Part shown: positions 59,476-60,060 of the stretch, piece by piece
How the letters are laid out: each line of letters opens with the position of its first letter
Numbering within the stretch: position 1 is the stretch's first letter
Source of the DNA: Escherichia coli
GTDB taxonomy: Bacteria > Pseudomonadota > Gammaproteobacteria > Enterobacterales > Enterobacteriaceae
Direction: 5' to 3' (one strand)
Length of the DNA stretch: 64,000 nt
Assembly: GCF_044324875.1 (NCBI RefSeq)
Contig: NZ_CP172185.1
Translations under genes and position numbers: made by a program
The notes under the pieces: generated by a model
The model's database searches: none
What the model was told of the DNA's origin: nothing
What the model saw: only the letters and a program-made list of their open reading frames with translations

Positions 59476-60060
59476 TTATGCTTTCCGTACGCCCGAGGAA
59501 CTGGCATTTTTCAGAATAATATTATGCCCTGCTGGTGGCTTACCGTTATGCTTATTTTCTGCCTTCATGTTTCTGCGCTCCTGCTGTTTTTTCTTCATCT
59601 CATCCAGTCGCTTCCCCGCGTTCAACTGGTGCTCCTGTGTCACCTCCCCGCACGGATGGCCTTTCAGGTCGTAACGCACGCCACCAGCCATCAGGGAACG
59701 GTAATATCGCACTGAACTGACATAATACGCCAGCGTTGCGCGAAGCGCTCCCTGACCTAATGAAATACCTCTCGCAGTAATATCCTCCATCAGGTCATCA
59801 AATATGCCAACCTTAAGCGGTCTGGGCGATTCCTGGCTGAAAAGTTCAGGCCAGAGCGCGGCAAGGCGTTCAACGCGTCTGATATTTTTTTTCCGGCTCT
59901 TTTCTGATTTGCGTTTTGCTGCCGTCTTCTGTTGTGTTTTCTGCTCGCGGCTCTGCTTTTGCGCTGGTGTGGTTTTATCCGGCTGTTCAGCCTCCTGCGT
60001 CTTTTTCTGCGGTGTGCCGTATATGCCTTTTGGTTTTCGGTTAATGGTCAGCTTTGTCAT
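59476..60060 (-). CDS. FinO/ProQ-domain RNA-binding protein with Lys-rich N-terminal region
   Basis: RPLKVGIFDDL...LRATLAYYVSSVRYYRSL..GGVRYDLKGHPCGEV aligns with the E. coli ProQ N-domain (RPLKIGIFQDL...LRSALRLYTSSWRYLYGV..GATRVDLDGNPCGEL); GGGGGAG RBS. Confidence 0.7.
   Translation of the reverse strand: MTKLTINRKPKGIYGTPQKKTQEAEQPDKTTPAQKQSREQKTQQKTAAKRKSEKSRKKNIRRVERLAALWPELFSQESPRPLKVGIFDDLMEDITARGISLGQGALRATLAYYVSSVRYYRSLMAGGVRYDLKGHPCGEVTQEHQLNAGKRLDEMKKKQQERRNMKAENKHNGKPPAGHNIILKNASSSGVRKA

Follow-up and report, generated by a model that had tools for sequence, protein, structure and literature searches.

A predicted FinO-like RNA chaperone encoded by a putative cos-type phage satellite of Escherichia coli

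Bacteria have three main classes of RNA chaperones, of which the FinO-domain proteins form one and, to our knowledge, every member of the family that has been studied on a mobile element (FinO, FopA and PcnR) controls a key decision of that element via an antisense RNA. FopA (YafB, from IncI1) and PcnR (from IncI2) are reported to chaperone an antisense RNA that controls a replication initiator (PMC9977716; PMC8053102). The FinO domain itself clamps the 3' nucleotide and the lower stem of a hairpin resembling an intrinsic terminator, and the basic regions that flank the domain aid RNA pairing or shield the RNA from nucleases (PMC9674577; PMC9977716). In RocC from Legionella, which has been seen bound to the RocR terminator (7rgt/7rgu), the residues Y87/R97, G52 and R75 hold the 3' nucleotide and the stem, and the N-cap S70-K71-S72 touches the hairpin phosphates (PMC9674577); FopA has an equivalent pair, Y146/R157 (PMC7491321). 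Among the phage satellites, an 8.2-kb island at tRNA-Pro with cargo 'similar to proQ' and 'PerC-like' was already listed when the genome of E. coli 042 was published in 2010 (PMC2808357), and our full-text literature searches found no paper studying a FinO protein of a PICI.

Here we analyse a FinO-domain gene carried by an island of E. coli. The window, that is, the whole stretch of 64,000 nt of DNA that was analysed, contains ~6.8 kb of this island, with the integrase end and the second att copy lying beyond it; the gene list of the entire element was taken from a complete copy present in TUM1886 (locus L001). The features located in the window are collected in Table 1.

Table 1. Island features inside the window, with the evidence for each
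Feature	Positions	Strand	Basis
Island end, att direct repeat ATTAACTACACCATTAACTACACCG	57218..57242	+	Single match in window
Nu1-like small terminase gene (terS)	58604..59188	-	54% identity to lambda Nu1 over 180 aa, full length; phrog_57 E 7e-65
Lambda-type cosN GGGCGGCGACCT	59381..59392	-	Single exact match in window; conserved in IHE3034 PICI
Intrinsic terminator GAAGCCGGAGTAGTCCGGCTTT + ATTTTTTAT	59432..59453	-	Terminator scan; -23.1 kcal/mol, z -5.5
FinO/ProQ-domain protein gene	59476..60060	-	Intact ORF, 194 aa; Pfam, PDB, AF2/Foldseek, family alignment, RefSeq
PerC-family transcriptional regulator gene	60140..60460	-	RefSeq; phrog_994 and transcriptional-activator phrogs
SSB gene	60478..60888	-	phrog_44; RefSeq
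Presumed replication origin, GGTAGAGGG iterons in both orientations	61187..61420	.	Repeat families; just downstream of primase gene
Primase (D5_N / P4-alpha-like) gene	61429..63177	-	phrog_864 E 1e-168; RefSeq 'DNA primase family protein'

The FinO gene runs on the minus strand from an ATG at 60060 to a TAA at 59476-59478. Translation from a second in-frame ATG further upstream, at 60156, would lengthen the ORF to 226 aa (added part 60061-60156, minus strand) and make it overlap PerC at that gene's 3' end; we favour the start at 60060 because the N-terminus MTKLTINRKP is kept across the family, because a strong RBS (AAAGGGGGAGAAC) lies just 5' of this ATG, and because the RefSeq CDS agrees with it. 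Indeed, in a 99.9% identical genome RefSeq carries the same 585-nt CDS as WP_029400542.1, under the name 'ProQ/FINO family protein'. The gene is already correctly annotated and its ordinary membership of the family is known; what we consider below is the clade to which it belongs, the elements that carry it and the role that it may have in them.

A preliminary description of the locus had recognized a ProQ/FinO RNA-binding domain in the C-terminal half of the protein, behind a Lys/Gln-rich N-terminus, and had suggested a Pfam search as a check; both assignments were confirmed. The ProQ_FinO profile (PF04352) matches residues 63-163 with an E value of 1.7e-26, covering model positions 8-107 of 109, and sequence searches of the PDB with phmmer returned the ProQ N-terminal domain (5nb9, 4e-18), FinO (1dvo, 2e-15) and RocC (7rgt, 2e-12), together with Lpp1663 and NMB1681. 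The AlphaFold2 model, based on 37 relatives, predicts a disordered, K/Q-rich segment (residues 1-43), a long helix (44-69), the FinO core (70-141, confident, with pLDDT >90), a long C-terminal helix (142-172) and a basic tail. When this model was compared with the PDB using Foldseek, the best 26 matches were all FinO, RocC, NMB1681 or Lpp1663, at a probability of 1.00, and the predicted fold had no significant match outside the structures of the FinO family. The first 62 residues contain 14 K and 8 Q (35% K+Q) and have a net charge of ~+14.5, so that the low-complexity start is as described; the domain itself sits centrally in the protein, with a basic tail of 30 aa behind it.

The residues of the pocket for the RNA 3' end are preserved. 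Y119 and R129, which align with Y87/R97 of RocC and with Y70/R80 of ProQ, are invariant in the 37 relatives, and K83, G85 and R107 are conserved in them, G85 nearly invariantly and R107 with a Lys at its position in the Salmonella members; in the alignment G85 corresponds to the beta-turn Gly52 of RocC and R107 to its Arg75. The N-cap position is different: it reads G102-Q103-G104 here, and Gly-x-Gly throughout the clade, instead of the S70-K71-S72 of RocC, and the Lys contact is lost. Glycine is able to cap a helix. Given this N-cap, RNA recognition by the island clade may differ from that by RocC.

Compared one by one with the described FinO-domain proteins, the island protein shows both similarities and differences: (i) With FinO of the F plasmid (1dvo) it has ~34% identity over the PF04352 core, a similar length (194 aa, as against 186 aa), long N- and C-terminal helices around the core and a gene position at the distal end of a long operon of a mobile element. 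Both proteins also have a basic LT(L/I)xRK element, which forms part of a shared N-terminal motif, (V/K)LT(L/I)xRK...G, reading (K)LTINRKPKG in the island protein and (V)LTLKRKTEG in FinO. However, the island protein falls under the cut-off of the NCBIfam model NF010317 (75.6 vs 136 bits), has Gly-x-Gly in place of the N-cap Ser, and is encoded by a chromosomal satellite, whereas FinO belongs to a conjugative plasmid that carries FinP/traJ; a FinP/traJ-like partner was not found, with no match to the FinP family in an Rfam search of the island. (ii) ProQ (5nb9) provides the best match to the core, and the equivalents of its K35, R58, Y70 and R80 are kept. In contrast, the protein scores under the equivalog cut-off of NF003434 (76.4 vs 127 bits), has a K/Q-rich N-terminal extension but neither the linker nor the Tudor-like C-terminal domain of ProQ, and is the product of an accessory gene rather than of a core chromosomal one. 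(iii) FopA and PcnR are, likewise, FinO-domain proteins of ~200 aa from mobile elements, in which a basic N-terminal extension precedes a C-terminal domain. Nevertheless, FopA of R64 is 30% identical in the FinO core only, with an unrelated N-terminus, and both proteins are plasmid-borne, whereas the island clade has no plasmid copies and its synteny does not depend on the replicase. (iv) The predicted core superposes on that of RocC at ~2.1-2.7 A rmsd (TM ~0.8 on the target), and the residues of the 3'-nucleotide pocket (Y87/R97) and R75 of RocC are conserved in it; RocC differs in its long C-terminal extension, in its single chromosomal sRNA partner and in its N-cap. Because of the N-terminal motif and the two long flanking helices, we consider the overall architecture to be FinO-like, and not ProQ- or FopA-like.

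The element that surrounds the gene is, judging from its sequence, a cos-type PICI, a phage satellite. The preliminary description had placed the gene on a mobile island, and the boundaries bear this out: the element is inserted between clpS (56724-57044) and cspD/yljB, and in the complete copy of TUM1886 a 25-nt direct repeat, ATTAACTACACCATT(A/G)ACTACACCG, bounds 10,348 bp. On the minus strand the gene order is integrase, AlpA-like HTH, two small counter-oriented genes, Icd-like, DUF4222, primase, an 85-aa gene, SSB, PerC, FinO, Nu1-like terS and a 94-aa gene. The class assignment thus rests on a size of 10.35 kb, the integrase, the AlpA-like regulator, the primase with its iteron origin, the att repeats, the cos site with a Nu1 homologue, and the known PICI siblings; this agrees with the usual description of PICIs as elements of ~10-15 kb with an integrase, an AlpA-type regulator, a primase and iteron ori, att sites and a packaging determinant, and with no tail or lysis genes. 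An iteron origin next to the primase is the layout described for PICIs, and induction by helper phages, packaging and transfer have been seen experimentally in relatives of this island (PMC6092414). In the window PerC immediately precedes FinO, with a spacer of 79 nt, and the long operon of the island closes with the terminator that starts 22 nt past the FinO stop codon. Beyond it, a cosB-like region extends from cosN to the start of terS at 59188, and over its first 16 nt the cos region is identical to the lambda left end. Membership of a defence system was rejected, a PADLOC search having given no hit.

The closest experimentally studied PICIs are EcCICFT073 and the island of strain IHE3034, the latter being among the elements tested by Fillol-Salom et al. 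(Table 1 of PMC6092414). Both share with the present island the int, alpA-like HTH, Icd-like and DUF4222 genes, a primase that is 92-94% identical, the iteron ori, SSB, a lambda-type cos and, at the end, a small gene. The island of IHE3034, whose primase is 93% identical, even occupies the same clpS-cspD site. No FinO gene or remnant of one was found in either element. In the slot that holds PerC and FinO here, the IHE3034 island has capsid and head-decoration genes, and in EcCICFT073 the capsid genes come after SSB-PerC; the latter island encodes RppA (Rpp-type) rather than a full Nu1 homologue. Because these two islands transfer without a FinO gene, the role of FinO would be modulatory and dispensable for the basic satellite cycle.

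Other features of these islands were observed along the way. A non-coding segment of ~530-560 nt (57500-58060) near the island end, absent from the IHE3034 sibling, is bounded by 27-nt direct repeats at 57393-57419 and 58029-58055 and contains a perfect GC-rich palindrome at 57615-57640. Among 5426 E. coli genomes, its first 316 nt are present in 805, with 79 places on plasmids and with occurrences in the terminal region of PICIs that lack FinO, and the segment matches no Rfam family and has no annotation. Short repeats of the type CCTGCTGGTGGCTTA and CTCCCGCTGGTG are found at 59528-59542, 60110-60135 and 60515-60537 (L001 14535-14549, 15118-15140 and 15520-15542), that is, at the 3' end of FinO, in the PerC-FinO spacer and at the 3' end of SSB, and in both SSB and FinO they code for KPPAG. 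Past recombination may have left them as scars, which would account for the unusual order of PerC and FinO and for the 30-aa C-terminal tail that is unique to this FinO variant. In the part of the island outside the window, the two genes that separate the AlpA-like gene from the Icd-like one and point against the operon (L001 20109-20660), one of the YlcI/YnfO family and one hypothetical, are each followed by a strong terminator (20298-20324 and 20629-20648). Finally, TUM1886, a strain that is otherwise near-identical, carries a second integrase-bearing island on the tRNA-Ser side of clpA (L001 1-8723), with a YfjI-family gene, an inovirus Gp2-type gene, a TOTE primase-domain pseudogene and a gene for a large AAA protein; this island is absent after the tRNA-Ser of the window (53809-53896).

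The FinO protein of the island is not an isolated case. Sequence searches retrieved 136 relatives at 37-68% identity, with ProQ/FinO-type source names ('ProQ/FINO family protein', 'ProP effector' or similar), and all their named source organisms are E. coli, Shigella, Salmonella, Citrobacter or other Escherichia. At the DNA level, relatives are present in 990 of 5426 complete E. coli genomes (at least 18%), in 1383 places and up to 9 per genome, all of them chromosomal, with none of the 1383 on a plasmid; the exact variant of the window occurs in 9 of the genomes. A phage collection contained distant relatives only (30-36% identity), and a plasmid collection contained FinO itself at ~34% plus one fragmentary, unannotated match at 61%. 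In a library of representatives at 50% identity, 2 clusters scored below 1e-30, compared with 2580 members of the family overall. These distributions describe a compact, island-specific and chromosomal clade, a separate branch of a large family.

The position of the gene in its islands is highly constant. We surveyed gene neighbourhoods and a scan of IMG/VR (80 loci), assigning neighbours with reference proteins, and in 88 FinO-bearing loci found the FinO gene always just after the replication module, and usually at the 3' end of the long operon, where it is the final gene or the one before it. This holds across replicases of different types (D5_N primase, DUF927 or AAA_25). On its upstream side the FinO gene is flanked by SSB in 40 of the 88 loci and by a replicase gene in 26, and in about a third of them SSB is missing while FinO stays. 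Downstream, a PerC-family gene is the commonest neighbour (at least 50 of the 88), and a capsid gene follows in 19 loci, which are capsid-forming PICIs (cf-PICIs). The commonest type has a 4-nt overlap between FinO and PerC, with a strong terminator ~40 nt past PerC; the order seen in the window (PerC, FinO, terminator, cos) is a minor arrangement (L015-L018). When the island of E. coli 042 was checked, its order was int, HTH, Icd, DUF4222, DUF927, SSB, FinO and PerC, with a FinO protein 54% identical to that of the window.

Some loci depart from this scheme. Related Salmonella islands (L007-L009, at 8001-9115, and L090) have two tandem FinO genes, of 213 and 152 aa, after SSB, and a Hok/Gef-type toxin gene some kb further on. 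In L049, L053, L055 and L057-L059 capsid-forming PICIs lie inside the terL of a prophage, embedded in the helper, with FinO between SSB and the capsid gene.

What might such a protein do for a satellite? Its homology points to RNA chaperone activity, and we propose, with a probability of roughly 0.6, that it is a FinO-like RNA chaperone which binds terminator-type hairpins and tunes transcripts of the island (PerC or the operon) or of the helper. Following induction of the island, the FinO protein would be produced alongside PerC and the products of the replication genes, would bind the 3' ends of RNAs that carry a hairpin plus a U-tail, as FinO, ProQ and RocC do, and would stabilise the bound RNA or RNAs, or pair them with a partner RNA, resulting in post-transcriptional tuning. 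The likeliest targets would be the mRNA of the island operon or of perC, or an antisense RNA of the island; transcripts of the helper phage or of the host would be less likely ones. For any specific RNA target our confidence is much lower than for the general statement.

We looked for a partner RNA in the island itself. Rfam searches at permissive E-values, over both the part in the window and the rest of the complete island copy, returned nothing relevant: no type I antitoxin, one of the targets that the preliminary description had imagined, and no known sRNA. By its shape the terminator at the end of the operon is a candidate FinO-type ligand; as a FinO-specific partner we rejected it, because it is part of the cos module and is near-identical in the IHE3034 island, which lacks FinO. 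An antisense hairpin with a T-run at 59864-59880 (plus strand), inside the FinO gene, was discarded as a chance occurrence because its stem is weak, with two G-U pairs, its T-run comes from Lys codons, and terminator-like sites are no more frequent than in shuffled sequence. The 530-nt non-coding insert was likewise set aside as a FinO-linked RNA gene, since its common 316-nt part also occurs in PICIs without FinO. The region between the alpA-like and Icd-like genes in L001, with its two strong terminators, is a plausible source of antisense RNA, and it too is present in FinO-less relatives.

A more specific form of this proposal would make FinO and PerC a conserved two-gene regulatory unit of the phage satellites of enterobacteria, in which FinO, together with an antisense or 3'-end-derived RNA of the satellite, sets the level or the timing of PerC and hence of the late and packaging genes, of helper exploitation or of LEE activation. 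We advance it tentatively, as a scheme that is rather improbable; if true, the FinO-PerC unit would be the first layer of RNA-chaperone control described for a PICI.

The same partnership with PerC can be read in another way, which we consider unlikely: FinO would be a 'moron' acting in trans on RNAs of the host or of the helper phage, either as a mimic or competitor of ProQ or as a stabiliser of phage RNAs that end in terminators, and would alter host physiology or virulence together with PerC, or the lysis-lysogeny decision of the helper. [quoted passage not shown] However, the FinO gene lies inside an island operon that depends on induction and has no obvious promoter of its own, and binding specificity is not predictable from sequence.

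Another reading starts from the location of the gene directly after primase, ori and SSB, and supposes a copy-number control like those of plasmids, with the FinO protein helping an antisense RNA to repress the island initiator or primase. It has plasmid precedents in FopA (which acts on Inc RNA/repZ), PcnR and FinO (PMC9977716; PMC8053102), but FopA is only 30% identical to the island protein, and the clade is paired with three unrelated types of replicase, which is hard to fit with an antisense RNA specific for one of them. Moreover, no antisense pair of promoter and terminator stands out, and the number of terminator-like sites in our scan is not above the shuffled expectation. We therefore regard such a control as quite improbable. 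Least likely is a role as a replication accessory that acts with SSB on structured ssDNA or primer RNA at the origin, and not as a post-transcriptional regulator: although the gene is always just downstream of the ori and next to SSB in 40 of the 88 loci, it persists where SSB is missing, adjacency to PerC is commoner than adjacency to SSB, and the characterised FinO domains all bind RNA terminator hairpins through the pocket that is kept here (PMC9674577).

Taken together, our results indicate that a distinct clade of FinO-domain proteins is encoded by what is nearly a backbone gene of many phage satellites of E. coli, Salmonella and Citrobacter. What is new is that this clade is island-specific, widespread, fixed in its position, usually coupled to PerC, and missing from the model PICIs that have been studied. 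Should phage satellites operate without RNA-chaperone regulation, the FinO gene would be an ordinary and correctly annotated accessory gene. Its presence in so many of them raises the question of whether satellites use such regulation and, if they do, of what its effect would be on their transfer, on their interference with the helper phage or on the regulation of virulence.
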